The notes: generated by a model from the sequence alone, not told the origin. A DNA stretch of 64,000 nt from an uncultured delta proteobacterium (GCA_963760985.1 CAVXFM010000010.1:388430-452429); one strand, 5' to 3'; shown: positions 19,034-60,269, counted from the stretch's first letter. Numbers and translations: made by a program.

Positions 19034-22471
<3,438 letters not shown>

Positions 22472-34966: not shown

Positions 34967-34996
34967 CGCTTCGGCGTTGACTGCGAGGGACTCAAT

Positions 34997-35437: not shown

Positions 35438-35446
35438 GAATACCAC

Positions 35447-37403: not shown

Positions 37404-37666
37404 GCAGGCCTGTGGACTCAGTACACACAGGCTCCTGTGGGGGCGTCAGAGAATGATAGTGAGCCCCATTGCGATTCGCTGCAACCATCGGGAACGGCTT
37501 TAGGTGGACCACACCGCTCAGCTTGCCGCGGATTATGGGCTTTTGGCACGCCGGATAGTGAAGCGCCGGTCGGTATGACCCACCAGACGGTAAGGCTCGG
37601 TTCGGTCTTCACTATGCCGCGATTTTTAAGGCGCTTCACTATACATCCTATGAACGGTGGAAGGAC

Positions 37667-38153
37667 TATGCAAGGCAAACGCTGCGAAGAAACTCGAATG
37701 ATTATGGCGGTTCAGATGAATCCCGAGGACGCGAACCCGTGGGGAAACGTCCACGGCGGCGTGATCATGAAATATATTGATACGGCTGCCGGGGTGGTGG
37801 CCCATCGGCATGCGAGACGCAACTCGGTCACCGCGTCGATAGACCGGCTGGATTTCCATCACCCGGTCTATGTGGGAGACTTGCTCATACTCAAAGCAAG
37901 TCTGAATTGGGCGGGCAGAACCTCCATGGAAGTGGGTGTGCGTGTGGAAGCCGAGAACTTGTTTACTGGCGAGATTAGGCACACCGCGTCGGCATATCTT
38001 ACGTTTGTCGCCCTGGGAGAAAACAAGAGGCCAGAGGAAATACCCCCATTGATCGTGGAGACCGCGGACGAGAACCGACGCAACTGCGAAGCGCAACAGC
38101 GGCGAGACATACGCATGGATCAGAGAAGGCGAGAGCGTGCATGTAAGGCCTAG
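37667..38153 (+). CDS. acyl-CoA thioesterase (hotdog fold, YciA-like)
   Basis: NPWGNVHGGVIMKYIDTAAGVVAHRH...YVGDLLILKASLNWAGRTSMEVGVRVEAE is typical of the 4HBT/acyl-CoA hydrolase family. Start codon uncertain. Confidence 0.7.
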
Positions 38154-38312
38154 TGCATCTCTTCGCCATTCGCGTGCCGCGCGCGGCAGAATCGGCAAGA
38201 GCCCTTGCCTGTGGGGGAATGGCAAGAATGACTCGTGAAATCGTGGACAAGAACAAGCGGATAGGCAGTCAGACCACATGACGGGAACCACGTGCTCCGG
38301 GCACGACGACAG

Positions 38313-42723: not shown

Positions 42724-43953
42724 TCACACTCCCCGACGTTTCATCAGTCGGTCGAGCTCGGAAACCGCCGCGGCCGCGCAGGCCTCGTCATTGATGTGCG
42801 CATCCACTTCCTGCACCTTGACTTGTTCGTGGAGCAGCGCCTTCAATTCCGTTACAAAGGCCTGATTGATATCAGGCTCGTAAAGAGGGCCGGTAAGCGT
42901 GTCCGCTTCCGACCATCCTCTGAGGGGAATCAGCAACGAGACAGGCCCTTTGGCGCGGTTCAGTTTCTCTGCAATGGTACGAGCCAGTTGCAGCACGTCC
43001 TCTTGGCTGGTGCGTACGCCGGACCTGAAATCATACCAGAAGACTTTACGGCCCTTCACTGCTACGGGCATCGTCTCCAAAGAATTGAATTCCAGCACAA
43101 TGCAATCCAACCCTCCGGGGACGATCACCTGCGGGATACCCCTTTTACTTGCCGATTCCAACCTCCCAGGCCCGATGCCGCCGCAGTACCCTCCGTATAG
43201 CTCATCCGCGAACTCGTGAAGCGCATAATCCACCACCCCATCGATGAGGCCCTGATCTATGAGATCCTCCAAGGCCATGCCGCCGGTGCCGTTGGCATGG
43301 AACGGAGCCACTTCATAACCGAGATTCTCCAGCAAGTTTTTGACACGCATCGCTCCCTCGGTAATGAACCCGAATGAGGTGAGACCGATGATTGCCTTCT
43401 CCGGGACAATCTTGCCGCAAGTCCTGGTCATGCCCGCAATGGCCGATGCCGCGTTGGTGAGGATGCGTATGCTGATGGAATTGAGGCCAAGCACGTCGAT
43501 CACAGAGTGCATGACCGTGATATCCTTGGTACTGATGAGCTGACTCATGTCTCTGGATGCGACAGTTGAGACCATCAGCTTCGGCACCCCGAGAGGTAAG
43601 CTACGCATGACACCCATACCGATGTGGGTTCCGGTTCCACCGCCGACAGAAATAATCCCGGAAAGCCTCTCCTGGTCGTACAAAACCCGTACCACCGACG
43701 AGGCTCCCTGGGTCATCGTCTCAACCGCAAGCCGCCTGTCCTTTGCCTCCAGAACTGCCTCGATTGTGGAACCTGCCGCGTGCGCCACCGTTTCCCGGGT
43801 AACATCCGCGGAGATCGTGGGAGGATGGAGCGTGCCCACATCTACCACGATCGTGGAACATCCATCGCACTCCAGACGTTGTTTGAGAAATCCGACTTCG
43901 TCACCTTTGGTATCGAGCGTTCCGACTATGACGACGTAAACGGGCATGATCAC
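42724..43953 (-). CDS. UPF0261 (Tm-1-like) family protein
   Basis: 409 aa, intact. Typical UPF0261 N-terminus (VYVVIVGTLDTKGDEVGFL) and conserved GGGTGT segment. Confidence 0.8.
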   Translation of the reverse strand: MIMPVYVVIVGTLDTKGDEVGFLKQRLECDGCSTIVVDVGTLHPPTISADVTRETVAHAAGSTIEAVLEAKDRRLAVETMTQGASSVVRVLYDQERLSGIISVGGGTGTHIGMGVMRSLPLGVPKLMVSTVASRDMSQLISTKDITVMHSVIDVLGLNSISIRILTNAASAIAGMTRTCGKIVPEKAIIGLTSFGFITEGAMRVKNLLENLGYEVAPFHANGTGGMALEDLIDQGLIDGVVDYALHEFADELYGGYCGGIGPGRLESASKRGIPQVIVPGGLDCIVLEFNSLETMPVAVKGRKVFWYDFRSGVRTSQEDVLQLARTIAEKLNRAKGPVSLLIPLRGWSEADTLTGPLYEPDINQAFVTELKALLHEQVKVQEVDAHINDEACAAAAVSELDRLMKRRGV

Positions 43954-44888
43954 CTCTTCTTCCCGGGGAATGGGACCTTACAGGCCCTTGGCACTACCTC
44001 GTACATGAGTAGCATCGCTCTGCACCGAGACCCTTGGAGATATCTCGGCCTTTGCACCCGCGCATGAGTCTCTACTCAAGGGCATGGAGAATGACATCAC
44101 TCTCCGCTGCCCGTGCGGTAACTGGCGGACTAAGCTGCTCCGCATCCTGACTGACTGCCGGGTTCATGGACGCACCGACTGCCGCCGCGTCCCCTGGAAC
44201 GGACTGTGAGGGGGCGCAAGCCTAACCCCCTGCAGTGCGACGGACCCAGGAGCAGATGCTTTGAGCAAGGCTTCGAATTGGTGCGCACGCATTTGTGCTT
44301 GACCGATTGTCAGTAGGGACATGTGTCCTTCATAATCAGCCAATGGAACGTCAAGCCAGGGATTGCTCATACTAAGTCCACGGGGCCGCTTGGCTGTTGT
44401 TCTCCGGACTTCCGCGGCGGTCTTGCCATTTCGGACGTCTTGGGGTACGCGAGGGATCAGGGGATGGTGACCGTGACTCCGAAAAGGCCCCCCTGTAGTC
44501 CTCCGCAATGCCCAAAGGAGGCAAAACCGTCGTCACGTTGCTGAAAAAGCATGCAGTCGCCAGCTGCAGAGCGTACCTCACCCCGGCCGACTCCGTCAAT
44601 CATTTTTCAGCTCTGTGCTCGGTACGTGGGACGCAGACGCGGCCATGTGCGTGCAAGCCACACGCCTACGCCTTGTGAAAGGACCGTGTCATCGCGATTC
44701 GCTCGTGCTTTTGGACGATGGCGGAAGGTCGGATAAACGAAGACTCGACCGCTTTGCAGCAATCGCGGTGACACGGGATCTGCCTACTCCACAGAAGAAT
44801 CACACAGAAGATATGGGGGCAACCAGGAGAAGACTCTCGCTCCAACCTTGTGGAGACGTGGGATGCGCACGCTATTGGCCGTGGTACG

Positions 44889-45791
44889 TCAGGCGAGTAC
44901 CGGATATCCCTCTCGCGACTTCCTCGCTATTTTCATGAAGTACCTCATGGCCGCTGACAGGGGCTCATCGCGCAAGGTGACGATGTCCGCGTGAAAGGTG
45001 ATGTTCCCTTCCGCGAGTGCGATGGATCTGAGAATGCCCGACGACAGTTCCTTTTCGATTTCGTGGGACAGGATGAAGGAAATACCCATGCGGCGTTCAA
45101 TATACGCAAGGATGAAACTGAGACTCTCCGATTCCACGACAACTGACGGGGTCACACCGTTTTGGCCGAGCTTTTTCAGAATTGCGTCACGGGAACCGGA
45201 GCCTTCCTCACGAATAATCAGTGATTCCCCTGTGAGCGCTTTCATGGAAATGGGGCCTCCCAAAGCCAGCGGATGGTCCGGCCTGGCTACGAGAAGGAAC
45301 TCGGCCTTCGAGAAGGGAACGGCTCGCAGGGAAGAATCGTACCCCGTCCGTGCGACTACGACCAGATCTTCGCGGCGATTGCGCAGCCTGGTAATGAGCT
45401 CTGCGGAGTTTCCCTCGCTCAGGCGCACGTGAATTCGTGGAAACTTGTGCTGGAATTGAGCCATCAGGTCGGGCATGAGCGTTCTGGCATACCCCTTGGT
45501 GCTCCCCACCCGGAGTCTTTGCGCACTGGTTTTTCGGGCCTTCTCCAACACGCCATCGATCTGGTCTACCCGGCAGAAAATTCGTTTGGTGAGAAGAAAC
45601 AGTTCCTCGCCTACGTCCGTCAGCTTGTACTGATTGGCCTCACGATAGTAAAGTTTGACCCCGCATTCCTCTTCGAAGCTCCGGAGCTGCTGGGATACCG
45701 CGGGTTGAGAGATATTAAGAGATTCTGCTGCCTTGGTCATGCTGGCGAACCGGCAAAAGAAATGAAAAGTTTCGAGGTGTTTGAGGTTCAT
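44889..45791 (-). CDS. LysR-family transcriptional regulator
   Basis: N-terminal HTH (MNLKHLETFHFFCRFASMTKAAESLNISQPAVSQQL) and C-terminal substrate-binding domain. Divergent from ubiX. Confidence 0.85.
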   Translation of the reverse strand: MNLKHLETFHFFCRFASMTKAAESLNISQPAVSQQLRSFEEECGVKLYYREANQYKLTDVGEELFLLTKRIFCRVDQIDGVLEKARKTSAQRLRVGSTKGYARTLMPDLMAQFQHKFPRIHVRLSEGNSAELITRLRNRREDLVVVARTGYDSSLRAVPFSKAEFLLVARPDHPLALGGPISMKALTGESLIIREEGSGSRDAILKKLGQNGVTPSVVVESESLSFILAYIERRMGISFILSHEIEKELSSGILRSIALAEGNITFHADIVTLRDEPLSAAMRYFMKIARKSREGYPVLA

Positions 45792-46240
45792 CACGGTTCT
45801 CTGTGCAGGCCAGCCTTTGCTCACTGAATGCGCTGCGTTCCCGACCACGGATGCACGAGTCTTTGTACCCGCGGTTCGGGAAAATGGCTTGCTGCGTACA
45901 AAATGACAGATCTCCTTCTATTATAGTATAAGTCAAACTGATACACCTATAATTTTTTGTGACTTGACTTCCAGGCCCGAGTCGCTGACAATCTTTACCA
46001 AGGAGATCCAGATCTCTGTAATAGGTTTTGTATGACATAATCCACGCTTATGCCTGTCTTGAGGGAATGGGCCGGTCTTTGGCCACACCGGTCGGAATTC
46101 CGGGAGTGGGGACAGGTTCGATTACGCTCACTTTTAGGGAATAACATCTTATGTGATCACACACAGACTTCGGCTGGTCGGTCCGGAAGACTGAGCCTTA
46201 CCTGAACGACGGAAACAACATTTGTGCAAGGCGACTCCAT

Positions 46241-46828
46241 TTGGGCGTCGAGAAAGGAGTTCGGGTGAAAAGGATCATAGTCGGCATCAGTGGCGCGAGC
46301 GGGACGGTCTACGGTGTGCGTTTGCTGGAGGTGCTCAAAGGGACTGAAGGCATCGAGTCCCACCTCATTTTGACACGTGGCGCCCGCGTTGCAATGGAAC
46401 TCGAGACCGGCATGAAGCCCGACCTTGTGGAGCAACTGGCTGATTGCGTCTATTCTCAGGACAATTTGGCCGCTGCGGTTTCCAGTGGATCCTTCCGGAC
46501 CGAAGGAATGGTGGTAGCCCCATGTTCCATGAAAAGCTTGGCCATGATCGCATGTTCGCTGAATGACAACCTTCTTGTACGCTCTGCCGATGTGATACTC
46601 AAAGAACGAAGAAAACTGGTGATCGTGCCCAGAGAGACACCGTTGCACCTGGGACATCTCCGTCACATGATTACGGTCACCGAACTCGGCGGAGTGATCT
46701 TGCCTCCAGTTCCTTCGTTTTATCATCAACCAAAGACCATTCAAGACATCATCGACCAGACGGTAGGCAAAGTTCTCGATCAATTCGGCATAGAACACGA
46801 CTTGTTTCGGCGCTGGGCTGGCGGATGA
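46241..46828 (+). CDS. ubiX: flavin prenyltransferase UbiX (prenylated-FMN synthase)
   Basis: RIIVGISGASGTVYGVRLL, SGSFRTEGMVVAPCSMKSLA, LVIVPRETPLH. Start may be the GTG at 46265. Confidence 0.85.
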   Translation: MGVEKGVRVKRIIVGISGASGTVYGVRLLEVLKGTEGIESHLILTRGARVAMELETGMKPDLVEQLADCVYSQDNLAAAVSSGSFRTEGMVVAPCSMKSLAMIACSLNDNLLVRSADVILKERRKLVIVPRETPLHLGHLRHMITVTELGGVILPPVPSFYHQPKTIQDIIDQTVGKVLDQFGIEHDLFRRWAGG

Positions 46829-47349
46829 CCAAGGACGAACTGGAAGCAACCGTAATCCGGTTCATGGATTCGTTTACCACCATGACACTTGCCTGTTGCC
46901 TTGACGGCACGCCATGGGTTGCGGCTGTGTATTACGCTCGGCAGGGATTTGACCTGGTCTTCTTTTCATCGCCGAAATCCATTCACGCGACCATGTTCGC
47001 ACAGAACCCCGCAGCCGCTGCAGAAATACATGGAGTCTACGAACGATGGCAGGAAATCAAAGGTCTCCAGATGGACGGGCAGGTGGAAGCGATCACCACT
47101 CCGGTCGCTCTGGCCAAGTGTACGGCCACGTACCTCAGACGATACCCGTTTGTCCGGGAGTTCTTCTCAGGATCCGCAGCGGAAACGGCAGGCATGATGG
47201 CCAAGATGAGTCGAGTAGGATTGTACGTGTTTCGACCCAACAGCGTACGCTATCTCGACAACCAAGGGGGATTCGGAAACAGATGGAAACTGGACATAGC
47301 CAACGGCCGTGCCGTCGGTAATCCGGTCCGTGATGACAGGAGTCTCTGA
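46825..47349 (+). CDS. pyridoxamine 5'-phosphate oxidase-like FMN-binding protein
   Basis: 174 aa with a PNPOx split-barrel-like pattern. Overlaps the ubiX stop by 4 nt, so probably co-transcribed. Confidence 0.55.
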   Translation: MTKDELEATVIRFMDSFTTMTLACCLDGTPWVAAVYYARQGFDLVFFSSPKSIHATMFAQNPAAAAEIHGVYERWQEIKGLQMDGQVEAITTPVALAKCTATYLRRYPFVREFFSGSAAETAGMMAKMSRVGLYVFRPNSVRYLDNQGGFGNRWKLDIANGRAVGNPVRDDRSL

Positions 47350-47435
47350 AGATAGCAAGAAGGAAGTTATTCGGTAGATCTCACAACAAATCACCCGGTT
47401 TCGACGCCAGGCAACTCAAGCAGGAGGTAGCACAC

Positions 47436-49268
47436 ATGGCCGAGTTGAAGTTCCCGAGTCCCCACGAAGCAGAGCGTATTCCAGGAACGGAAGGTTGGGA
47501 GCGAATGTATCCCTACCATTACCAGTTCAGCACCGACAACCCGGATCGTAAGCACTACGAAGAGAACATGTTCTGGTTTTATGACGGGCTGCACTATCCG
47601 GAACCCATGTATCCCTTTGACATTATATGGGATGAAGCGTGGTTTCTGGCACTGTCACAGTTCAACACGCGTATCTTTATTGTGCCTCCCGCCATGGGAA
47701 TAGATCACCGTATTCACAACGGCTATATCTACATCACGCCATTGCCCGTCGCCGACCCGGCAGATATTCCCAAGAGGGCGGAACACTTCATGAAACGGGC
47801 TGGCTATTATTACCAGAACTGGGACAAGCTCCACGACAACTGGGAATCGAAGATGCGAGGGATCATCGCAGAACTCGCTGACCTGAAGATTCCTGTCCTA
47901 CCCGAAATGGAGGATGAGTCGGTCGTCCTGGAAGGGAAGGGCACGTCCACCGGTTATACGCTGCTCAATGCGTACGACAAGCTTATCGATCTGGGCATCT
48001 TGTGTTGGCAATACCACTTCGAGTTTCTGAATCTCGGATACGCTGCATACGTGGTGTTCGTGGACTTCTGCCAGAGAGTCTTCCCCGACATCCCGCTCCA
48101 GAAGATCACCCAGATGGTGGGCGGCATTGACGTCATCATCTACAGACCCGACCAGGAACTGAAGAAGCTTGCGAAACTGGCTATCGATCTCGGCGTAGAC
48201 GACATCGCCATGGCCGGAGAAGTGGATTCAGTGCTCGGAGCCATGGAAAAGTCCGAGAACGGCAAGAAATGGCTCCAGGCCTTCAACGCAGCCCGAGACC
48301 CGTGGTTCTATGTGTCCACAGGAACCGGCTGGTATCATCATGACAAATCCTGGAACGACGATCTTAACATTCCGCTGGACGCTATGCGCATCTACATCGA
48401 GAAGCTCCGTCAAGGAGCCAATATCGAGCGCCCCACCGCCAAAATCATCGAAGAGCGGGACAGACTGGCCACTGAATACCGGGCCTTGATCACGAGCGAA
48501 GAAGACCGGGCGACTTTCGACCAGTTGCTGGGAACGTCACGGACAGTCTTCCCCTATGTGGAGAACCACCTTTTCTACGTGGAGCATTGGTTCCACAGCC
48601 TCTTCTGGAACAAGATGCGTGAGGTGGCTGCCATTCTCGTAGAAAACAAGTTCATCGCGGAAGTGGAAGACGTCTGGTACCTCACGAGAGCGGAGATCAA
48701 GGATTGTCTCTGGGACGTGGTGACCGCATGGGCCACCGGAAGTAACCCTCGCGGACCTCTGGTATGGCCTAAAGAAGTTGCGTGGCGCAAGGGAGTGATG
48801 GACAAGTTCCGTGAGTGGACGCCACCGGATGGCATGGGCAAAGTCCCGGAAACCATTTCCGAACCCTTTACCATCGTGCTGTGGGGCATCACGTCCGAAT
48901 CGATGGCACACTGGGCCAAGCTGAAGACCGTGGCAGAGGGCGACCTCTCGAAGATTATCGGCTTCCCCGGATCGCCAGGAGTGGTGGAAGGTAAGGTTCG
49001 TGTGTGCCGCACGGTCAAGGAGATCGGCGAACTCAAAGAGGGCGAGATCCTCGTGGCGCCGACCACCTCACCAAGCTGGGCACCGGCATTCCAGAAAATT
49101 AAAGCAGCCATCACTGACGTCGGCGGCGTCATGTGTCACGCGGCCATTGTGTGTCGCGAATACGGCCTTCCTGCCATCGTGGGCACAGGTTCGGCAACCT
49201 CCAGACTGAAAACCGGCATGAAGATCAAATTGGACGGTTCCAAAGGGGAGATCAATATCCTCTCGTGA
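47436..49268 (+). CDS. ppsA: PEP-synthase-like protein with C-terminal PEP-utilising mobile His domain (phenylphosphate synthase PpsA-like)
   Basis: 610 aa. C-terminal phosphohistidine motif GGVMCHAAIVCREYGLPAIVGTG. Size and architecture match the roughly 70-kDa PpsA subunit. Confidence 0.7.
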   Translation: MAELKFPSPHEAERIPGTEGWERMYPYHYQFSTDNPDRKHYEENMFWFYDGLHYPEPMYPFDIIWDEAWFLALSQFNTRIFIVPPAMGIDHRIHNGYIYITPLPVADPADIPKRAEHFMKRAGYYYQNWDKLHDNWESKMRGIIAELADLKIPVLPEMEDESVVLEGKGTSTGYTLLNAYDKLIDLGILCWQYHFEFLNLGYAAYVVFVDFCQRVFPDIPLQKITQMVGGIDVIIYRPDQELKKLAKLAIDLGVDDIAMAGEVDSVLGAMEKSENGKKWLQAFNAARDPWFYVSTGTGWYHHDKSWNDDLNIPLDAMRIYIEKLRQGANIERPTAKIIEERDRLATEYRALITSEEDRATFDQLLGTSRTVFPYVENHLFYVEHWFHSLFWNKMREVAAILVENKFIAEVEDVWYLTRAEIKDCLWDVVTAWATGSNPRGPLVWPKEVAWRKGVMDKFREWTPPDGMGKVPETISEPFTIVLWGITSESMAHWAKLKTVAEGDLSKIIGFPGSPGVVEGKVRVCRTVKEIGELKEGEILVAPTTSPSWAPAFQKIKAAITDVGGVMCHAAIVCREYGLPAIVGTGSATSRLKTGMKIKLDGSKGEINILS

Positions 49269-49505
49269 CCCCTGAGTAACTGTCCCGCAACAGGTTTTTC
49301 AGGAAACCCGTATAAGACTCAACAAGACCGTCACCCTGGCGGGCCCCGGATCAGCATCCGAGGCCGCCGGGGTCCAGAAAACCCCAAAAGACATGGATTC
49401 CGGGGTGTACCGGAATGACGAACGCTGGACCACAGGATTCATAACCAAGGCTACCAATAGACTGGTCTATTTTGGGGACGGTCCCAAAGGATAGAGGCTT
49501 TTCCG

Positions 49506-50585
49506 ATGGAAATATCCAAGTATTTGATTCCATTCGAACAATGCGACATGACCATGGTCGACATTGTCGGCGGGAAATGTGCCAGCCTGGGAGAGTTACT
49601 GAGAGCCCAGATCCCCGTGCCTCCCGGATTTGCCATTACCACCGAGACGTACAAGCAGTTTCTCGCAGACAACGACCTGACAACGAAAGTCATCGACAGG
49701 CTCAAGGGCGTCAACGAGAGCATGAACGATGAGGTTGAACAGGCATCTGCCGACATCCGTGCATGGATTGAAGCCGGAACCATAAGCGAGGCTCTCGAGG
49801 ATATCATTGCGGATGAGTATCGGCTTCTTTCGCGTGTGGCCCGCACTCCTGCACTTCCCGTGGCAGTCCGTTCCTCGGCTACCGCGGAGGATCTGCCGGA
49901 CGCGAGCTTTGCCGGCCAGCAGGACACGTTCCTGTGGATCCGTGGAGTGGACGACCTCTTGGATCGAATTCGCAAGTGCTGGTCCAGTCTGTTTACCCCG
50001 CGAGCGATTTCTTACCGCACCAAAATGGGCTTCGACCACAGTCAGGTCTTTCTCAGCGTGGCAGTGCAGAAGATGGTTCGTTCCTTTACCGCGGGGGTAA
50101 TGTTCACTCTCAACCCGTCCACAGGGGATCCTTCCACGGTGGTCATCGACTCGAACTGGGGATACGGCGAAAGCGTCGTTTCCGGAGAAGTAACTCCCGA
50201 CCAGTTCCACGTGAACAAGATCACCCTGGAGGTTACCAAGAAGACCATTTCCGAGAAACAGATCTATTACACGACAGATCCTGCCACCGATCAGGTCATC
50301 AAAATCGAGCCGGAACCGCAACGGCGGGTCGCTCAGAGCTTGCTGGATATGGAGATCGTCGAACTCGCCAGGATCGCGAAAATCATTGAGAAGCACTACG
50401 GCAAACCGATGGACATCGAATGGGCAACGGAGAAATCCCTGCCGTTCAAAGGCGAGGTGTACATCCTTCAGAGCCGGCCCGAAACCGTGTGGAGCCGTAA
50501 AGTGGTCAAGCCGGTCATGGAGCCCAAGAAGAGCGCTTTGGAGCACATCGTCGCAGGTCTCATTAAAGGAAGAAAGGTCACCTGA
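49506..50585 (+). CDS. ppsB: PEP-synthase N-terminal ATP-grasp (PPDK_N) domain protein (phenylphosphate synthase PpsB-like)
   Basis: 359 aa. DIVGGKCASLGEL, SSATAEDLPDASFAGQQDTFL, and NWGYGESVVSGEVTPD are typical of the PPDK_N nucleotide-binding domain. Confidence 0.7.
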   Translation: MEISKYLIPFEQCDMTMVDIVGGKCASLGELLRAQIPVPPGFAITTETYKQFLADNDLTTKVIDRLKGVNESMNDEVEQASADIRAWIEAGTISEALEDIIADEYRLLSRVARTPALPVAVRSSATAEDLPDASFAGQQDTFLWIRGVDDLLDRIRKCWSSLFTPRAISYRTKMGFDHSQVFLSVAVQKMVRSFTAGVMFTLNPSTGDPSTVVIDSNWGYGESVVSGEVTPDQFHVNKITLEVTKKTISEKQIYYTTDPATDQVIKIEPEPQRRVAQSLLDMEIVELARIAKIIEKHYGKPMDIEWATEKSLPFKGEVYILQSRPETVWSRKVVKPVMEPKKSALEHIVAGLIKGRKVT

Positions 50586-50651
50586 AACGCCACCGCAACG
50601 AGCCAGAATCACATCTACCCGAAACGGAGACGCGAGGAGGAAGAAACCCAC

Positions 50652-52060
50652 ATGAAAGACATGAGAGATTTTATCAAAGCAGGAGAGGAACGGGGCTTGT
50701 GCAAACGAATTACCGCACAGGTCGACTGGAACCTGGAATTGTCGCATATCGCGAAACTCAACGAAGAGGCCTGCGGGCCCGCACTGCTATTTGAGAATGT
50801 GAAGGATTACAAGACCCCGGTCATCACCAGCGTGTGCACCACCACGGAACGGCTGGCCCTGATCATGGGGCAACCGCTCGACTCAACTCTGGTGGATCTT
50901 TACGAAGCCTGGGCAAAGTTGGGCGCAAATCTGATTCCGCCAAAATTTATCGACAAGGCCGGAGCCCCCTGCAAGCGAAAACATCCTCACCGGAGACCAG
51001 ATCGATCTATACAAATTCCCCGTTCCCCACTGGTATCCCAAGGACGGCGGACGTTATATGGGCACGGCCCACTTTGTCATCTCCAAGGACCCTGAGTCGG
51101 GCTGGGTCAACCTAGGCACGTACCGGGGCCAGCTTCTTGGGAAAAGACAAGATGGGGACCCAGTTCATCAAGGGCAAACACGCGGACATCATGTTGAAGA
51201 AATACCAGGCAATGGGCAAACCGATGCCCGTGGCCTCGATTATCGGATGCGATCCCCTCCTGTTTATTCTCGGGGCAGCGCGCGTGTCCGCTTTTGTATC
51301 CGAGTATGACGTGGCAGGCGCTCTCAGGGGAACACCAGTGGAAGTGGTGCAAGGAGAAACCGTCGACCTGCCCATCCCTGCCCATGCCGAGATCGTTATT
51401 GAAGGCGAAGTGGATGCGAACAAATTCATGGAAGAGGGACCGTTTGGCGAGTACACCGGCTATTACTCCGGCGTAGGCACGGACCCGCGGAATTTTATCG
51501 ATGTGAAATGCATCACTCACCGGGACAATCCGATTCTGTGGGGAACCACCGTCGGCCGTGCGGTGACGGACACGCACATGACCATGGCGCTTTCCTACGG
51601 AGCGACTCTCTGGCAGCAGCTCCTAGCCATGAAAATACCCGGTCTGAAAGCGGTGTACTGTCCTCCGGAGGGTTCTGGCAGGTTCCTCGCCATCATCTCC
51701 ATGAAGCAGATGTATCCGGGCCACGCTGACCAGGTGCTCACTGCCGCCATCTCCACGGAAATGGGTGCGTACGGCCTGAAAACAGTGATCGTGGTGGATG
51801 AAGACATAGATCCCTGGGACATTCCCCGAGTAATGTACGCGCTGAGTTTCAGGTTCCAGCCCAATCGTTCCCAGGTCATTAAACGGGGCCGGTCCACACC
51901 GCTGGATCCTTCCCTGCCCATCGACGCGAGGGACATCACGGGCAGACTACTCCTGGATGCCACCATACCCTATGACTGGAAAGAAAAACCGATTCCCATC
52001 GAATTGGATGCGAAGATGGTGGAAAGAGTCAAGGCCCGGTGGTCTGAACTGGGATTGTAA
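50652..52060 (+). CDS. UbiD-family prFMN-dependent (de)carboxylase (phenylphosphate carboxylase PpcB-like); two apparent frameshifts (about 50988 and 51141-51144)
   Basis: Three successive frames carry continuous UbiD homology. ORF 50652..51095 reads ...APCK. ORF 51058..51309 frame reads ENILTGDQIDLYKFPVPHWYPKDGGRYMGTAHFVISKDPESGWVNLGTYRGQLLGK. ORF 51137..52060 reads DKMGTQFIKGKH...EYTGYY...IVVDEDIDPWD. One extra C after AAG and an A4 versus A3 run explain the shifts. Confidence 0.75.
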
Positions 52061-52173
52061 GTGGGAAATCGGAAAAGGGAACCCGGAATTTTCTCTGCGG
52101 TTCCCACGCTCCGGAAGGGAACCGATGCCGGACGCTTCGCGTCGCACGACTCCGGACTGGCAAGGAGGCCTCA

Positions 52174-53835
52174 TTGAAACCGATTCGATACAAGAAAGAG
52201 ATGGTGGATGAATTCGTAAAGAATGGGTACTGGACCCAGGAGACCTTTTACGATTTCTGGGACAGAAACGCCCGTGAATATGGCGACAGAGAAGCCCTGG
52301 TCGATTCCAAGTACCGCCTGACTTGGGCCGAGGCAAAGCGTCTGGTAGATGCCATGGCTATTTCATGGGTAGAGATGGGGATTCCTCAGCATTCCCGCAT
52401 CATCGTCCAGTCTCCCAACAGCGTGTACGGATTTCTCTCCAGAATTGCCTGTGAAAGGGCCGGCCTGATCTCCTTGACGGTGTACCCTTACCTTCGGCAG
52501 AGGGAACTGGAATACATGGTCGAGCGGACCGAAGCGTCGGCCGTGATCATTGTCAATATCTACAACAAATTCAATTATCTGGAAATGTACGCAGGACTCC
52601 AGAAGCAGTTTCCTCATTTGAAGAACATCTTTCTCTTTGATGATGAAGTGCCCGATTCTGCTCCCCCGGGAACCTTCTCACTTACCCGCATCGTGAATGA
52701 GCGGGTCAAGAAGCCCGTGGACGAGGCTGTGCTTGCGGAAAGAAGACTTGATCCTCTGTTGAATGTGGCGCTGCTCACCACGACATCGGGAACCACAGGA
52801 ATTCCCAAGCTTGTGGAATGGCCCATCGCTCCCCGAGTCTGCACGTCCAAGGGCAGAGTGGATATCTGGAATCTTTCCAAGGACGACATTACCATGGCCA
52901 TAGCGCCTCATGCTGGTGGCGCGGCCGGAACACTCACGTATTTTGCCGCTCCGCTGGTTGGGGCAAAGACCGTCATGCTGGAGGAATTCTCTCCCGAAGG
53001 AGCCTTGGCCCTCATCGAAAAGGAAAAGGCAACAGCAATCGGTGTCGTGCCCACTCACCTGGTGAGAATGCTCAGCGTTGATGCCTCCAAGTATGATCTG
53101 AGTTCGCTTCGCTTTATCCGTTCAGCCGGCGGCTATCTTTCGCCGCAGATTGCCGAGGAGGCCGAGCAGGCTTTCGGCGCTTCCATAACCAGCGATCTGG
53201 GCACTCAGGACATGGGGTCAGTGTCCGGATGTCGTGTGGAGGATTCCAAGGACCTGCGCCGCAGGACAGTCGGACGCATGCTTCCGGGAAACCAGGTGCG
53301 TCTCATGGCTGAAGACGGCAAGAGTGAAGTTTCCGACGGAGACCCTGGAGTCCTCTTTTTCCGTGGGCCTCATGCGCCTGCCGGGTACTACCGCGACGAG
53401 GAACTTACTTCCACGGTCTTCGATCCCAACGGCTGGACCACCACTGGCGATATCGTCAAATTCGACCAGGGGTGTTTGTGGATACTGGGAAGGGCCAAGG
53501 ACATGATCATCAGGGGTGGCCAAAATATCTATCCCGCGGAGATCGAGGGACTTTTGAACGATCATCCCAAAGTGAGCACGGTTGCGGTGGTCGGATACCC
53601 GGATCGGGAAATGGGCGAGCGGGCATGTGCGTACGTCATTCCCAAGGCAGGCCAGGAATTCACGTTCAAGGAAATGGTCGATTTTCTGAAATCCAAGAAT
53701 ATCGCCATGTTCAAACTGCCTGAACGTCTGGAGGTGGTGCAGGAGTTGCCCACCGTGGGCGATTCCGGAAAAGTGAACAAAGAGACCCTGAAAAAAGAAA
53801 TCAGAGAAAAGGTGGCCGCGGAGGGCAAATCCTGA
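52174..53835 (+). CDS. AMP-forming acyl/aryl-CoA ligase (4-hydroxybenzoate/benzoate-CoA ligase-like)
   Basis: 553 aa. AMP-binding motif TTSGTTGIPK, TGDIVKFDQGCLWILGRAKDMIIRGGQNIYPAEIE and C-terminal Lys (GKVNK). Confidence 0.8.
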   Translation: MKPIRYKKEMVDEFVKNGYWTQETFYDFWDRNAREYGDREALVDSKYRLTWAEAKRLVDAMAISWVEMGIPQHSRIIVQSPNSVYGFLSRIACERAGLISLTVYPYLRQRELEYMVERTEASAVIIVNIYNKFNYLEMYAGLQKQFPHLKNIFLFDDEVPDSAPPGTFSLTRIVNERVKKPVDEAVLAERRLDPLLNVALLTTTSGTTGIPKLVEWPIAPRVCTSKGRVDIWNLSKDDITMAIAPHAGGAAGTLTYFAAPLVGAKTVMLEEFSPEGALALIEKEKATAIGVVPTHLVRMLSVDASKYDLSSLRFIRSAGGYLSPQIAEEAEQAFGASITSDLGTQDMGSVSGCRVEDSKDLRRRTVGRMLPGNQVRLMAEDGKSEVSDGDPGVLFFRGPHAPAGYYRDEELTSTVFDPNGWTTTGDIVKFDQGCLWILGRAKDMIIRGGQNIYPAEIEGLLNDHPKVSTVAVVGYPDREMGERACAYVIPKAGQEFTFKEMVDFLKSKNIAMFKLPERLEVVQELPTVGDSGKVNKETLKKEIREKVAAEGKS

Positions 53836-55075
53836 TGGAACGAGTCATCCTTGTCCTGTCCACCCTGGACACCAAAGGGCCGGAAACCTTGTACCTCCGG
53901 GATCGGATCCGACAGCATCGGGCCTTCCCGATGGTGTTGGATCTGAGCATGTCGTCCGCGAGCCCGGATGCAGACATCTCCTCAGCGGATGTGGCTCGAG
54001 CCGCGGGCACGGATATTGAGCAGATTTCGCGCATCACGGGAGCGCAAGCTGATCACTCGGCAAATGATTAACGGCGCGGTGAAACTCACGTTGGATCTCC
54101 TGCAATCCGGTCGTCTGGCCGGGGTAATCGGCCTGGGGGGTTCCACCGGGAAGTTTGATGGCCACCGACGTGATGCGTGCGTTGCCGTTTGGGGTTCCCA
54201 AACTCATGGTTTCTTCTACCGCTGCACTGCCGGGGCTTGCCACGCGGTACATCGCCACCGGGGATATTTCGATCCTGCACACCGTGATAGAGATCGCGGG
54301 CTTGAGCGTTCCTTTGCGCAACGTCCTGGATCGCGCGGCCGCGGCCATCGTAGGCATGGCCGAGGTTGAGCCTCTCACCGGGGAATCGCTGCGTTCGGAG
54401 GGCAAGCCGCTGGTGGCCATGTCCATGTTCGGGCCCACGGAGCATTGCGCTCATCACGTGCAGCAACGTCTGGAGCAAGAAGGATTCCAGGTGATCGGGT
54501 TTTCCGCGGCAGGGATGTGCGATCGGGCAATGGAAGACATGATCGGTATGCGATTCTTTGACGCAGTGGTGGATGTGGCGCCTGGAGGGGTGGGCGAGGA
54601 GGTCCTCGGCGGTATGCGGGCTGCAGGTCCGCAACGTCTCACCACCGCGGGCAAACTGGGCATCCCTCAGGTGGTGGCGCCTGGAGGGGTCAACCTCACC
54701 AGCCAGCGCAAGTCTCGGTACAAACCCGAGCACCACGAACGGAGAAAATACGAGCTGGATGAATTGCGGACATTCCTCAGAGTGTCTGACGAGGAGATGG
54801 AACAGATAGCCCGCGTCTTTGCGGAAAAGCTCAATCAAGCGACAGGACCCGTCATTTTCCTGTTCCCCACTCAGGGTTGGTCTGCGGTGGATCCTGTGTC
54901 GGGGCACATGTGCGACAGGGAGCAGGACCGCCTGTTTCTCAAGGTGTTGCGGGAAAATGCTGCCCCGCACGTGATCATCCGAGAGGTTGATGCGAACCTC
55001 GAGGACAAGGCCTTTGCCGAGGCCGTAGCGCATGCGTGCCTGGAGGTATTTCCCCGACCGCAACCACGGGCTTAA
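53835..55075 (+). CDS. second UPF0261 (Tm-1-like) paralogue; two apparent frameshifts (about 54040 and about 54160)
   Basis: ORF 53835..54071 (MERVILVLSTLDTKG...), ORF 53968..54369 frame (INGAVKLTLDLLQSGRLAGVIGLGGSTG) and ORF 54155..55075 (ALPFGVPKLMVSS...). Together they align end-to-end with the intact paralogue at 42724-43953. Confidence 0.65.
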
Positions 55076-55361
55076 TACCGGGGTCCTGTCGTGATTTTCT
55101 CATACTGGTGTGCGCCGATTCAGGCAGTAATGGCAGGCACGCGCCATGCCTCCCACGCGCAGCCAGACTGGACGTTTGCAGCGGAGGAGGCATGACGCTT
55201 GGCTTCCTTGCTTTTGCGCACACTGGTACAAGGCCCTTCTGACCGTACCGATGACGAACGCGGGTTGGTGTCTCAGTCAGGAGTCAGGCTTCGCACACAG
55301 GTAGCTCCCCCGCCAGGGTGGAGCTGCCCACATCATTAAATCCCGCGACAGGGAGGCTCTC

Positions 55362-56000
55362 ATGTTGGTAAAGAACTGGATGCTGCCGCAACAATATTCC
55401 ATTTCCAGCGATGCACTTGCTGTTGAGGCGGTGATGCTCATTCGTGAGCACAATCTGAAGATGCTTCCGGTGGTCGATCAAGGCAGGCTTCGCGGAGTTG
55501 TCCATCGCAGGGACCTCAGCGAAGCGGCTTACTGTGTCAGTGGGAGCGGCGATCTCTGTGAAATGAACTATTTCTGCAATAAGCTCAAAGTCAAGGACGT
55601 GATGGTCCGCATGCCCGTAACCGTGTCAGTGGACGACACGGTGGACGACACACTCATCAAAGGCAGAGACTTGCTGATGAGCACCTTTCCCGTAATGGAC
55701 GGCGAAAAAGTTGTGGGCGTGGTGTCGGACCGTGAAATATTCGTGACCCTGTTCAAACTCCTGGAAGCGGGAGCGGAGCGCACCAGGTTTACCTTGAGCG
55801 ACGTGACTCTCGAAAAAGGAACTCTCTCGAACATCCTGCGTATCGTGGACGAGAACGGTGCGGTGGCTCATGCGATCTTTACCGTTCCCAACGGGAAGAA
55901 CGGCCATTGTCGGGTGGTGTTGCGATTGCAGGCGGACAACCCGGAAGCGATCAGGCAAGCGCTCAGTGACGCAGGGTTCACCATACTTGAGTATTCTTGA
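55362..56000 (+). CDS. CBS-pair protein with C-terminal ACT-like region (PpsC-like stimulatory subunit candidate)
   Basis: 212 aa, two CBS motifs (MLPVVDQGRLRGVVHRRDL and TFPVMDGEKVVGVVSDREI). About 24 kDa. Confidence 0.65.
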   Translation: MLVKNWMLPQQYSISSDALAVEAVMLIREHNLKMLPVVDQGRLRGVVHRRDLSEAAYCVSGSGDLCEMNYFCNKLKVKDVMVRMPVTVSVDDTVDDTLIKGRDLLMSTFPVMDGEKVVGVVSDREIFVTLFKLLEAGAERTRFTLSDVTLEKGTLSNILRIVDENGAVAHAIFTVPNGKNGHCRVVLRLQADNPEAIRQALSDAGFTILEYS

Positions 56001-56243: not shown

Positions 56244-57396
56244 TTACGTTCCTGACTGGTGGTTTTGTGTGTCCGGGACCGTGGTCAAGTCTATCTGGAA
56301 TTCCTTCTTTCCTCTCAGCACCTTCAGGTGCACGGTTTCCCCCACATTCTTCTGAAGAATAAGATTGTTGAAATCATCGTACGTCGGTGTGGCCTTTCCA
56401 TCTACCGACAGGATCACGTCTCCACCAAGCACGATCGGCCTGCCCATATAGAAACGCGCGGCGGTCTCCGCCTCGAAGGCCCGCTTTTGCGGCAGGACTG
56501 CCAGGTGCTATGTCGTATATGAGCACTCCGTTGACCGGCGGAAGACCCATCTGGCGGGAGAGCGCGGGGTCAATGTTCATCATAGGGAGGATCCCCGTCC
56601 ACGGGTAAATAGCTCTGCCCCATTTTATCAGTTGCGCGGAAATCTTCTTGACCCTGTTAATGGGCAAGGCAAGGCCTATTCCCATGAAGCCGCCCGACTG
56701 AGTGTAAATGGCAGTGTTCACCGCGATGACCTCTCCACGCGAATCGATCAACGGGCCACCGCTATTGCCGGGGTTGATCGCTGCATCGGTTTGAATCATA
56801 CCCATCATGGTTCTGTTGCCGATGGTGAGGTCACGATGGAGTGCGCTCAGGAATCCAGCGGTTACCGTGTGTTGAAATCCGAAAGGATTGCCGATGGCAA
56901 TGACCCGCTGTCCCACGGAAAGATTGTTGGAGTCGCCCAGGGGAGCGACGGCCATGCCCGAGAACGAATCCACCTTGATCACCGCCAGATCGCTTACCGG
57001 GTCTCGCGCTACGAGCTTGGCCTGGACCTTACGATCGCCGACAAAAGTGACCTCCAGCTTTTCCGCGTTGGCCACCACGTGGTTATTCGTCACGATGTGC
57101 CCATCCGCGTCGATCACGAAACCGGTGCCCTGCCCAACCTGAGGCACTGCCTGCATCCAGAAATTGAGCGTAAGGCTCGTGGCCACTATGTTCACCACCG
57201 CGGGGCTAAGTTGCTGATACACCCGCATCACCACAGCCTCGCCGGATTCCAGCGCCTGGTCCTTCAGGGGTGGCGGCTTCACCACTACCACTGCGGGCTG
57301 CCGCTTAAGCCACATACCCACGGCAGCTCCGCCGACGAATATGATTAAGAGCGTTATTGCTACGGGCCACTTGCGAGAAGAAGTCATTGATACCAT
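56244..57396 (-). CDS. periplasmic serine protease DegP/HtrA-like (trypsin domain plus PDZ); apparent frameshift near 56440-56470
   Basis: TM/signal anchor and catalytic triad context (TNNHVV, DLAVIKV, GNSGGPL). PDZ start (GSPAAKAGLRGGD) lies in ORF 56374..57396. The PDZ remainder (VILSVDGKATPTYDDFNNLI...) lies in ORF 56244..56447 in another frame. Confidence 0.75.
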
Positions 57397-60269
57397 CCCA
57401 TTTGGCGAAGATATTCCACCATGCGCTGTGCAAGACCCTGCACGCCGGTCGGTTTGGGAGAAAGCGGGTTGGTCCGGCCACCATCCCGACTACTCGCGTT
57501 GCGCGGCATTTCAGCGGTCAAACCATCCCAATCTCTCCGTAAGGTCATGACACCTTTTTCATCCATCGCGTAGTGTCCGACCCCCAAATCTTGCCCACTC
57601 GGCGAGAGAATCCGTACGGTCCCAGATGGTGAGCCATGGCTAAGGTTCATTGCGACCATTGCCATGCCTCTCAAGGGATCTCCCGGACCGGACGCCAACA
57701 CGAAACTCGCATCGATAGGGCACACCGGCTTAGTCTCCGGGGCGATCATGCGATCAGGGTCCTCTTCCAGGAGCCGCCCCAGGTTTCGGTTGCCTGATCT
57801 ACGCATGCCCCCGGCAAACACGATTCCTTCCGGAGGCCGATACCCGGTACAAGGTTCGTGTGCAAGCGCAGCTTTCATAAAATCCATCCATACCGGGAGG
57901 GCAGCCCTTGCGCCGTGTTCCTGCCTGCCAAGCGAAGTCTTGGTGTCGTACCCCACCCACACTCCTGTAGTGTATTTGGGATTGAATCCGACAAACCAGG
58001 CATCCGCGCTGTCATCGGACGTACCGGTCTTACCCGCAAGGTCTGTCCGCCTGAGACGAGTGACTGCTGCAGCGGTGCCGCTTACACAGGTCTTGCGCAA
58101 CATACTGAGCATCAGGTACGCGGTGGAAGGGCTCAAGGCTCGGTACGGACGAGGTCGCGTGTGCGTCTGTGGCGTGAAAGGACGACCTGATAAGAGAGCC
58201 TCTACAGGAGGGCTCAGAGGAGGGGCTTGCTCCAACGGTTGCTCTTCCTGCGACTCTCCGTGGCCCTGGTCCGCGTATGCGTCTGTAGGGTCATCGAATG
58301 ACGATGGTGACGAAGCCTCTCCGCGGAGTGCGTCTCGATCCGTGTACGAGGCTTGCACTGCCTGGACAGACAGATCCACCGGCAGGGCGGTGTTGTCTTC
58401 CAATACGTTGCCGAATCGATCCTTCACTTTCTTGATGAGGACCGGTTCCCACGCGAATTCCCATGTTGGGAAACACCGTGTATGCGGCGGTCAGGTCAAG
58501 AGGAGTTACTTCCGAGGTTCCCAAACAAAGAGAAAGGTTCTTCTTCAAACGCGTGCGTATGCCCATTCTGCGAGCCATACGGATAGCCGGCTCCACGCCT
58601 ATGTCCATGAGTAGCTTGATTGCCACCACGTTGCGCGATTGCGCGAGAGCGTCGCGAAGCGTCATCAGCCCCCGATATTGTCCGTCCGCGTTTCCCGGAA
58701 CCCATTCGCCTTTACGGGGATCGGTGACCACTGCAATGGGTTCGTCGAGGATCAGCGTGTTGGGGCTGTAATCGCCCCATTCGAGGGCAGCTGCGTAGAG
58801 CAAAGGCTTGAACGCGCTGCCCGGTTGCCGGAATGCCTGAACAGCTCTATTGAACCGCGAGAGTTCAAAGTTCACCCCACCGACAAGCGCCCTTACGTAC
58901 CCCGTCTGGTTTTCGATGCACACTACTGCCCCCTGCACCGGAGGGGCTGTGAGATGTTCCAGCACGGGGAGCCCGTCTTCGAGGTCCTTGACGCGGAATT
59001 CCAGCAACTGGTTGGGCCGATAGGGCACATCCGACCGAAGCTTCATCCTGAACTGCACATTGCCGGCCAGCGCCACAGGTACAGTCGCGAGATGAGGTGT
59101 CGGTACGTGTGCCTTTCTGCTTGGGTGGGGCATGCGTGGCGACCACCAGCGCGCGCGTACCACATCGCCGACGTGGTACGATCCTCTTGGCGAGCTGTGG
59201 AGAAACTCTTTGGCCTCCGAAGTCTTCAGCCTTCGCACCAGCCCCGCGGGACGATGTTCCCGTTTCTCCCACGCGGTGACGCCCTTGACCAGGGCTTCCG
59301 ATGCCTTGTCCTGCAAGGAGAGGTCACACGTGGTCCACACTTGGAGGCCTTCGTTATACAGCCTGTTTTCGCCGTACTTCCGCACAATATACCGTCGGAC
59401 GGCTTCAGTGAAGTAAGGGACCCTGTCATAAGGGTTGGGTTGGCTTTCTCTGAACTTAGGAGACTCATGCGACGCAGTGCGGAATTCGTCCTCAGATACG
59501 AATCCATAGCGGACCATGTTGTCCAGTACCATACTCTCTCCGCTTGAGGCACGCGTCCAAATTGCGCAGGTGGGAATATTTCGAAGGATTGGACACAAAG
59601 CCGGCGAGCATAGCCGCTTCCGCAACACTCAGGTCTCGCGCATTCTTTCCGAAATAGGTTCGAGCCGCTGACTCTATTCCATAACACCCTTTTCCGAGGT
59701 AGATTTCATTCAAATAGATCTCGAGAATTTGTTCCTTGCTCAAAGTCTTTTCCAGCCTGAAGCTAAGGATTGCCTCTCGGATCTTTCTCGATAGGCGTTT
59801 TTCTCGGGACAGGATGAAGTTCCGCGTGACTTGCTGGGTGATGGTACATGCCGCCTTGCGCAAAATTCCCTGCTTTCAGATTCTTGAGCGCTGCTCTGGC
59901 GACTCCCAGCACATCCACTCCTGTGTGGGAAAAGAACCGTGCGTCTTCTGCCGCGAGAAAGGCGCCGACCACGTGCTTCGGAAGGGAATCCAAGGGCACG
60001 GGAAATCTCTTTTGCGTGTAGAAAACCCCTATGGCCGTGCCATCGTTCGCGTAGAATGTCGAGACCGTCTTGGGTTTGTAATTCCTGAGGTCCGGGACTT
60101 TCGGCAGGCCCTCGGAAAAGTGTACGTACGCCCCTAATCCTCCGCCGAGCACTCCACAACACAGGGCGACGGCAGAGAGAATGGGAATCCCCGCAAGAAA
60201 CCATCCCAGCATCCGCGCAATCGGAAAACTTTTCCCCCTGCGGCGTGTGAACAAACGCAAGTTCCACAC
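57384..60269 (-). CDS. mrcA: bifunctional penicillin-binding protein 1A (GT51 transglycosylase plus transpeptidase); at least 3 apparent frameshifts
   Basis: Four overlapping ORFs carry successive PBP1A segments. ORF 59763..60269 has a TM anchor and the GT51 start (EDARFFSHTGVD). ORF 59492..59863 has the GT51 core (GGSTITQQVTRN...RKIREA). ORF 58291..59628 has the linker plus the transpeptidase SxxK/SxN region. ORF 57384..58427 has KTGTSDD and the C-terminal tail. Confidence 0.7.

Follow-up and report, generated by a model that had tools for sequence, protein, structure and literature searches.

The window analyzed here is a 64,000-nucleotide stretch of DNA from an uncultured delta proteobacterium (GCA_963760985.1, CAVXFM010000010.1:388430-452429), in which genes were called from a listing of open reading frames (ORFs) and three-frame translation and then scanned against Pfam and NCBIfam. 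It contains a gene cluster that very probably represents a pps-ppcB type system for the anaerobic activation of phenol, in the form found in strict anaerobes and carried by a Desulfomonile-like member of the Thermodesulfobacteriota. The cluster belongs to a kind that has already been described. An initial annotation listed nine genes in a given order, and all nine were found in that order; two of them, encoding UbiD and UPF0261, are not intact ORFs, each being interrupted by two +1 insertions.

A divergent gene on the minus strand (44889-45791; extendable to a GTG start at 45848) encodes a LysR-family regulator of ~300 amino acids with the Pfam domains HTH_1 and LysR_substrate, which is kept at the equivalent position in relatives (62-77% identity). 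The plus strand then carries genes for the flavin prenyltransferase UbiX (46241-46828; NCBIfam NF004685, 269 bits with a cut-off of 188), a PNPOx-like small flavoprotein of 174 amino acids (46825-47349; Pfam PNPOx_N, 33 bits), and the predicted alpha (PpsA, 610 amino acids; 47436-49268) and beta (PpsB, 359 amino acids; 49506-50585) subunits of phenylphosphate synthase. These are followed by the interrupted gene for a PpcB-like UbiD carboxylase (50652-52060), a DhbE-like aryl-acid AMP/coenzyme A (CoA) ligase of 553 amino acids (52174-53835; Pfam AMP-binding and AMP-binding_C), the interrupted UPF0261 paralogue a (53835-55075), and a PpsC-like CBS-pair protein of 212 amino acids (55362-56000). 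The proteins analyzed for UbiD (468 amino acids, with domains UbiD_N, UbiD, and UbiD_C) and UPF0261a (414 amino acids, with both UPF0261 domains) are reconstructions across the frameshifts. A second, intact UPF0261 gene that was missing from the initial annotation lies upstream of LysR on the minus strand (paralogue b, 409 amino acids, Pfam UPF0261 N and C domains; 42724-43953) and is kept with the cluster in relatives. Pfam E-values for the cluster proteins range from 1e-8 for the weakest, the PNPOx-like protein, to 1e-117, far beyond chance. An Rfam scan of 41-58 kb gave no match, and consensus scans for promoters and terminators returned hits at chance level. The 935-nucleotide spacer between UPF0261b and LysR (43954-44888) holds no convincing ORF and no inverted repeats, has no second copy in the window, and matches no related locus; the corresponding gap in the closest relative is ~110 nucleotides.

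PpsA carries the motif GGVMCHAAIVCREYGLP with His568. This residue lies within GGVMCHAAIVCREYG and aligns with His569 of PpsA from Thauera aromatica LG356, found in GGVMSHAAIVCREYG, which is the histidine reportedly phosphorylated in the T. aromatica enzyme (Narmandakh et al. 2006). The conservation of this histidine agrees with the phospho-His motif that had been assigned to the 610-residue protein. The sole domain of PpsA is the phosphoenolpyruvate (PEP)-utilizers mobile domain (PF00391; residues 534-604), and NCBIfam model NF006152 recognizes the protein with 1008 bits (cut-off 723). Over its full length PpsA is 63% identical to that of T. aromatica LG356, with corresponding values of 64% for Azoarcus sp. 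KH32C and 63% for Geobacter-type proteins. The PpsB gene adjoins the PpsA gene, as expected for a beta subunit, and its product contains the predicted PPDK_N ATP-grasp domain (PF01326; 392 bits) and is 55%, 56%, and 55% identical to the proteins of the same three sources. The sizes of PpsA and PpsB agree, as had been pointed out, with the ~70- and ~40-kDa subunits of the Thauera enzyme. The proposal that the CBS-pair ORF encodes the third, ~24-kDa subunit (PpsC) is borne out by two CBS stretches and by 38% full-length identity to the PpsC-position proteins of Azoarcus KH32C (E 2e-46) and T. aromatica LG356; the CBS gene is also syntenic in Geobacter-type clusters, again with 38% identity. The PDB holds no phenylphosphate synthase structure, and PpsA matches PEP synthases there by its His domain only.

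Comparisons between loci drew on a set of 84, each of which was searched with window and Azoarcus proteins; genomes were scanned at one per species with the best 80 loci taken, and Desulfatiglans anilini and Geobacter metallireducens GS-15 fall outside this set. A neighbour-joining tree of 83 PpsA homologues, computed without the D. anilini subunits Pps-alpha and Pas-alpha and without AcvA/HpeH, groups the window sequence with Desulfomonile and with metagenome-assembled genomes (MAGs) of Syntrophales. This group and a Desulfobacterales clade together are sister to a clade of Thauera, Azoarcus, Burkholderiales, and Geobacter. Syntrophorhabdus and Bacillota sequences branch outside the grouping of window and Thauera/Geobacter sequences, and a distant position is taken by pairs from Actinomycetota and other phyla in which the gene order is inverted to B-A (47-53% identity). 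PpsA of the window falls inside the clade delimited by Thauera, Geobacter, Syntrophorhabdus, and Desulfotomaculum-type sequences, with the PpsA proteins of known phenol degraders and apart from other PpsA-like kinases. One locus (L003, GCA_041299705.1) contains a PpsA/PpsB pair, with PpsA 71% identical to that of the window, beside a UbiB/ABC1 kinase gene and has no UbiD, UbiX, ligase, or UPF0261 gene within 10 kb of the pair. A carboxylase gene is thus not an invariable companion of PpsAB in the window clade.

The repaired UbiD scores 496 bits with the model for the beta subunit of phenylphosphate carboxylase (TIGR02724; cut-off 469). For comparison, the scores are 497 bits (intact orthologue of Desulfomonile tiedjei), 504 bits (intact orthologue of Syntrophorhabdus), 548 bits (Geobacter type), 601 bits (Desulfotomaculum type), and 1127 bits (T. 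aromatica PpcB). With the UbiD, menaquinone, VdcC, and PpcA models, neither the repaired UbiD nor its D. tiedjei orthologue, to which it is 92% identical, reaches the cut-off. Identity to PpcB is 48% (T. aromatica) and 49% (Azoarcus KH32C), and identity to PpcA is 34%. In a tree of UbiD proteins, window-type sequences form a clade of their own that neighbors true PpcB and the single PpcB of Geobacter type and is well separated from PpcA and from ORF7-type UbiD. UbiX is 54% identical to UbiX of the Azoarcus and Thauera phenol clusters and to that of Geobacter-type clusters. The PNPOx-like protein resembles a PNPOx-family gene product encoded beside the sigma-54 regulator of Azoarcus KH32C (29% identity, E 4e-19) and a PNPOx-family protein of T. 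aromatica LG356 (34%, E 1e-25). Searches by tblastn with Azoarcus KH32C queries found no separate genes for PpcA, PpcG, or PpcD in the 64-kb window; by analogy with D. anilini, PpcA, PpcC, and PpcD could be encoded elsewhere in the genome.

Among solved structures, the ligase comes closest to 2,3-dihydroxybenzoate-AMP ligase and salicylate-AMP ligase. More than 120 database clusters match it with 82-92% identity, the D. tiedjei ligase does so with 90%, and in the compared loci its gene adjoins that of a window-type UbiD in every case. The ligase is not orthologous to that of Azoarcus KH32C (24% identity). We presume from its sequence and setting that it is a 4-hydroxybenzoate-CoA ligase. In comparing the loci, we noticed that L006 and L007 share near-identical PpsA proteins with L005, L008, and L037 (82-84% identical to that of the window) but differ from them in the UbiD-plus-ligase module: UbiD of L006 and L007 belongs to the Geobacter-type PpcB clade, and their ligase is 60-61% identical to that of the window. 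Because the module differs where PpsA is shared, the comparison suggests that UbiD and ligase are exchanged as a unit. Loci of Desulfobacterales and Syntrophorhabdus type (L009-L012, L038-L041, L044, and L052) encode a window-type UbiD (78-86%) and a similar ligase (70-80%) and are less conserved in PpsA (57-71%), PpsB (38-61%), and UPF0261 (36-52%). In two Bacillota loci the ligase (66%) is more similar to that of the window than is PpsA (57%), and UbiD comes from a different clade.

From homology, motifs, synteny, and phylogenetic placement we infer the following pathway, in which the substrate, every reaction, and the regulation are predictions. The scheme follows the enzymology of T. aromatica, as summarized in the D. 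anilini literature. PpsB would diphosphorylate His568 of PpsA with ATP, and PpsA would pass the beta-phosphoryl group to phenol, which would yield phenylphosphate, AMP, and phosphate; PpsC, the CBS protein, would stimulate this reaction. UbiX would make prenylated flavin mononucleotide for the PpcB-like UbiD, which is predicted to carboxylate phenylphosphate in the para position to form 4-hydroxybenzoate unaided by the Thauera subunits PpcA, PpcC, and PpcD. The DhbE-like ligase would then convert 4-hydroxybenzoate to 4-hydroxybenzoyl-CoA, and the divergent LysR protein may control the operon instead of the sigma-54 activator PheR. The two UPF0261 paralogues and the PNPOx-like flavoprotein are conserved accessory parts. 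The core of this route, in which UbiD, UbiX, and a CoA ligase complete the conversion of phenol via phenylphosphate and 4-hydroxybenzoate to 4-hydroxybenzoyl-CoA, was already put forward in the initial annotation and is supported by homology, the TIGR02724 match, and synteny.

Whether the cluster is functional in this organism depends on how the interruptions are read. Alignment with a related contig shows that the UbiD gene is spread over three frames (listed ORFs 50652-51095 and 51137-52060), with single extra bases near 50976 and 51138, and that the UPF0261a gene likewise occupies three frames, with single extra bases near 54025 and 54148. If these are real mutations, the cluster is inactivated and the organism makes phenylphosphate at most. 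Two +1 insertions per gene leave the frame unrestored, each gene is one intact ORF in six of the six compared relatives, and one of the four insertions lies outside any homopolymer run, all of which would fit a genuine loss. Against it stand at least four unrelated genes of the window that are also frameshifted: a penicillin-binding protein on the minus strand (57384-59628), whose transpeptidase domain is divided between 58291-59628 and 57384-58427; a hybrid histidine kinase (19034-22540, minus), with its response-regulator receiver domain split between ORFs; a PAS kinase (10949-12650, minus), with its PAS domain split between adjacent ORFs; and an ankyrin-repeat gene (13633-14785, plus), with its repeats split in the same way. 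Such division of domains across adjacent ORFs in different frames suggests an error-prone, probably long-read, assembly, and similar breaks occur in other genes of related long-read-style assemblies (the ligase gene in L001 and the PpsA gene in L047). Nor do the repaired proteins show decay. UbiD is 92-95% identical to orthologues and retains 30 of the 30 columns in which conservation among 76 aligned UbiD-family sequences is 95% or higher, and UPF0261a retains 59 of 60 conserved columns. Given the frameshifts in other window genes, the intact copies in relatives, and the preserved residues of the repaired proteins, we judge assembly error to be the most likely, and a probable, origin of the four frameshifts; inactivation of the cluster is unlikely, though it deserves to be kept in mind.

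The remaining alternatives concern what the enzymes act on. The same enzyme types could serve another phenolic compound (catechol, hydroquinone, cresol, or phenols derived from dechlorination) and deliver a substituted hydroxybenzoyl-CoA. Reductive dechlorination is typical of Desulfomonile. The window-type UbiD and ligase form a separate, very conserved module that is distinct from true and Geobacter-type PpcB, the ligase lies nearest to enzymes that activate 2,3-dihydroxybenzoate and salicylate, and the related PpsAB-type kinases AcvAB and HpeHI phosphorylate other phenolics. We nevertheless consider a different phenolic substrate quite improbable, given that PpsA is 63% identical to the Thauera protein and falls inside a clade of known or predicted phenol degraders and that the proteins of the UbiD-ligase-UPF0261 run of D. 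anilini are most abundant on phenol. Still further from the evidence is an aniline-type system like the ani cluster of D. anilini, in which a phenylphosphoamidate synthase and a carboxylase would lead to 4-aminobenzoyl-CoA. The kinds of genes match, since the ani cluster encodes a two-subunit dikinase, a UPF0261 protein (03869), an acyl-CoA synthetase, and a PpcB-like UbiD, and the initial annotation had left room for an aniline-type substrate. D. anilini Pas-alpha, however, is only 27% identical to Pps-alpha of the same organism, compared with 63% between PpsA of the window and that of Thauera, and the presence of a PpsC partner also counts against such a system, which we regard as very improbable here.

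Least credible is that the genes are unrelated housekeeping neighbors, namely a split PEP synthase or pyruvate phosphate dikinase (PPDK) next to UbiD and UbiX of quinone biosynthesis. PpsB does reach 390-405 bits with PEP synthase models over its ATP-grasp part, and 'pyruvate, water dikinase' is the common database name for PpsA/PpsB-like proteins. PpsA, on the other hand, consists of the His domain alone and has no PEP/pyruvate-binding domain; neither it nor PpsB contains a TIM-barrel domain; and their scores are far below the cut-offs of the PEP synthase model TIGR01418 (105 and 391 bits; cut-off 740) and the PPDK model (29 and 66 bits; cut-off 843). UbiD passes TIGR02724 and falls below the cut-offs of both quinone models, the Escherichia coli UbiD model PRK10922 (247 bits; cut-off 788) and the menaquinone model TIGR03701 (275 bits; cut-off 496). 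The same set of gene types, in varying order, recurs in at least five bacterial lineages. Both findings that the initial annotation had named as fatal to a phenol cluster, a split dikinase and a quinone-biosynthesis UbiD, are accordingly absent. A kinase of the rifampin-phosphotransferase type was rejected as well (112 bits with a cut-off of 999).

Several observations weigh against the assignment to a working phenol-activation cluster of the pps-ppcB type. The window-type UbiD clears TIGR02724 by a narrow margin only, and its clade lies outside both true PpcB and Geobacter-type PpcB. The grounds for the ligase substrate are solely its context and its likeness to hydroxybenzoate-adenylating enzymes. 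UbiD and UPF0261a are broken in the sequence as it stands, and the density of insertions, four in two genes within 10 kb, exceeds that in the rest of the window. The window contains no genes for 4-hydroxybenzoyl-CoA reductase or the benzoyl-CoA pathway. The likeness to the phenol cluster of D. anilini described below is one of annotation, protein length, and gene order, not of sequence identity. A literature search turned up no report connecting Desulfomonile with phenylphosphate metabolism or growth on phenol and no functional work on the D. tiedjei locus described below.

The flanks of the cluster consist for the most part of signal-transduction genes. Positions 1-23000 and 32756-40256 of the window are unusually dense in genes for PAS, GAF, histidine-kinase, response-regulator, GGDEF, and HD-domain proteins and sigma-54 activators, among them a 1306-residue multi-PAS hybrid kinase (4096-8016).

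Two main architectures were found among the 84 loci. The Thauera form comprises PpcB, PpcD, PpcA, PpcG, a further UbiD, DUF120 and NUDIX proteins, and a 432-residue ligase and lacks UPF0261. In the single-PpcB form, UPF0261 and/or a DhbE-like ligase (~553 residues) come after a PpcB-like UbiD, and PpsC and UbiX come next; this form was seen in Geobacter, many Burkholderiales, Desulfobacterales, relatives of Desulfomonile, Syntrophorhabdus, and Bacillota. A protein search of plasmid records identified the canonical betaproteobacterial phenol cluster on plasmid pAZKH of Azoarcus sp. KH32C (L004). According to RefSeq it contains, in its first part, a sigma-54 regulator, a divergent PNPOx-family gene, and genes for PpsA, PpsB, and a CBS protein, and, in the rest, ppcB, ppcD, ppcA, ppcG, a further UbiD gene, UbiX, DUF120 and NUDIX genes, and a gene for an AMP-binding protein. 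T. aromatica LG356 (L029) has the same cluster with near-equal identities to the window. These ppsABC-ppcBDAC clusters have PpsA, PpsB, PpsC, PpcB, UbiX, and the PNPOx-family gene in common with the window; their genes for PpcA, PpcC (ppcG in L004), PpcD, the ORF7-type UbiD, the DUF120 and NUDIX proteins, and the 432-residue ligase have no counterpart there. Conversely, the window has both UPF0261 and the DhbE-like ligase, which the Thauera type lacks, and a LysR regulator instead of the sigma-54 regulator PheR.

A pps-ppcB cluster was reportedly described for G. metallireducens by Schleinitz and colleagues in 2009. The Geobacter-type clusters compared here (MAG loci L027 and L031) encode, like the window, PpsA, PpsB, a single PpcB-like UbiD, UPF0261, PpsC, UbiX, and a PNPOx-like protein nearby. 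They differ in having a sigma-54 regulator, no DhbE-like ligase, and one UPF0261 protein, which is of the His-retaining type described below, and their UbiD, 49% identical to that of the window, falls into another PpcB sub-clade. Three of the features by which the initial annotation had set the window apart from the Thauera and Geobacter clusters consequently lose their force. A single UbiD is standard in Geobacter-type clusters; UPF0261 is present both there and in the D. anilini phenol cluster; and PNPOx-like genes occur in the Geobacter MAG loci as well as in the Thauera and Azoarcus clusters. The LysR regulator stands as a difference, and only two others survive with it: the placement of UbiX and PNPOx first in the operon and the co-occurrence of ligase and UPF0261. 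The clusters described in two recent papers on anaerobic benzene degradation (PMC13101534 and PMC13416013) proved unrelated.

The phe cluster of D. anilini (H567DRAFT_02049-02059) encodes Pps-alpha, Pps-beta, and, of the carboxylase subunits, Ppc-beta only, together with a 'DHB-AMP ligase' (02058) that is induced on phenol; phenylphosphate synthase activity has been measured in this organism (Xie and Muller 2018, PMC6114531). Like the window, the cluster of this sulfate reducer from the same phylum has PpsA, PpsB, and a single PpcB without PpcA, PpcC, and PpcD, and the genes for PpcB, ligase, and UPF0261 stand in the relative order of the window (02059, 02058, 02057), followed by UbiX (02056). 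The synteny comparison with Geobacter-type and Desulfatiglans clusters that had been suggested thus shows shared gene types and, in D. anilini, the same PpcB-ligase-UPF0261 order. The four proteins UbiX (02056), UPF0261 (02057; 403 amino acids), ligase (02058; 552 amino acids), and Ppc-beta (02059; 468 amino acids) all reach their highest abundance in cells grown on phenol, the only condition under which UbiX was detected (PMC7500099). Peak areas on 4-aminobenzoate, aniline, benzoate, and phenol were 0, 5.0e7, 5.3e7, and 2.5e9 for UPF0261, which is ~50-fold more abundant on phenol, and 8e8, 8e8, 7e8, and 1.3e10 for the ligase, whereas UPF0261 of the ani cluster (03869) was detected in aniline and 4-aminobenzoate cultures only (PMC7500099). 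There are also differences. Identity to the Thauera proteins is only 42% for D. anilini Pps-alpha and 38% for Pps-beta, compared with 63% and 55% for the window; the D. anilini cluster holds 4-hydroxybenzoyl-CoA reductase genes, of which there are none near the window cluster; it contains a second ligase of phenylacetate-CoA type and a response-regulator-type regulator in place of LysR; and its PpsC candidate is encoded elsewhere in the genome, whereas PpsC of the window lies inside the cluster.

The UPF0261 proteins can be compared with MarK of Novosphingobium aromaticivorans (Saro_1862, PDB 9MPY), which phosphorylates aromatic hydroxyl groups while converting ATP to ADP and whose activity, reported in 2025, is the first catalytic function known for the family (PMC12624787). 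MarK is the best PDB match of UPF0261a. An alignment of 41 cluster-associated proteins with MarK resolves two subfamilies, a, encoded downstream of the ligase, and b. Both window paralogues share with MarK the two-domain fold family and the D-T-K motif of the ATP site (MarK K16). The substrate pocket differs from that of MarK at His304, His348, and Phe283 in both paralogues. The positions of MarK His219, His304, and His348 are occupied by Ser, Leu, and Val in paralogue a and by His, Tyr, and Ala in paralogue b. The equivalent of His219, which binds the phenolic oxygen in MarK, is replaced by Ser in subfamily a and retained in subfamily b and in the Geobacter/Burkholderiales type; the ketone-binding His348 is missing from both subfamilies. 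MarK moreover works with a pathway that uses a biotin-dependent carboxylase, and the window cluster with a UbiD carboxylase. Judged by their sequences, the window proteins are members of the MarK fold family and not MarK orthologues. The UPF0261b gene adjoins LysR in L005-L008 and L047 and directly follows the CBS gene in D. tiedjei (67% identity). In three Syntrophorhabdus-type loci (L038, L040, and L041) the genes form two operons, LysR-UbiD-ligase-UPF0261a and PpsA-PpsB-UPF0261b-UbiX, so that each subfamily is paired with a different half of the pathway.

UPF0261 genes tend to occur where the other carboxylase subunits do not. Among 53 PpcB-like loci, which are phylogenetically non-independent, those with PpcD or PpcA (n = 13) contain UPF0261 in one case, the ligase in none, and neither gene in 12. 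The loci without PpcD and PpcA (n = 40) contain UPF0261 in 29 cases, the ligase in 19, and neither in 6, several of the latter being truncated contigs. Because of this inverse relation and the substrate-specific abundance in D. anilini, it is tempting to speculate that the UPF0261 proteins are working parts of the PpcB-only phenol system with a direct catalytic role, a suggestion that we hold only tentatively and consider improbable as matters stand. In place of PpcD, such a protein could deal with the phosphoryl group of phenylphosphate on behalf of the single UbiD subunit, or it could act as an ADP-forming phenol kinase that would be cheaper than the AMP-forming PpsAB. A finding against a direct role is that heterologous UbiD subunits of D. 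anilini converted phenylphosphoamidate without a UPF0261 protein. In the searchable literature we found no discussion of a role for UPF0261 in PpcB-only phenol systems. The authors of the D. anilini work treat as unsettled how strict anaerobes carboxylate phenylphosphate and at what energy cost (PMC6114531), and either role, if true, would bear on how phenol activation is affordable for these organisms.

The closest counterpart of the window in a cultured organism is found in D. tiedjei DSM 6799 (L085; CP003360.1, 962-984 kb), where LysR, UbiX, PpsA, PpsB, UbiD, ligase, UPF0261a, CBS protein, and UPF0261b are all encoded by intact genes, with identities from 63% (LysR) and 67% (UPF0261b) up to 92% (UbiD). 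The cassette is also intact in several MAGs. The D. tiedjei locus differs from the window in two ways: gene calling gave nothing PNPOx-like between UbiX and PpsA, and UPF0261b is found after the CBS gene, not upstream of LysR. After UPF0261b, D. tiedjei has a gene (14978-15871 of L085) for an ARMT1-like protein, a type (DUF89) that includes metal-dependent phosphatases; the window has no counterpart of it at the equivalent position. The intact cassette in a cultured strain makes the roles of UPF0261 and the DhbE-like ligase directly testable. For the window itself, the analysis adds one further Desulfomonile-like lineage that is predicted to degrade phenol anaerobically, which is unsurprising and useful for annotation, as 'pyruvate, water dikinase' and 'NRPS component E' are wrong labels that such genes routinely carry. 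The comparison between known systems is the more useful result: clusters linked to PpsA fall into a Thauera form with PpcA, PpcC, and PpcD and a widespread form in which a single PpcB is accompanied by UPF0261 and/or the DhbE-like ligase.

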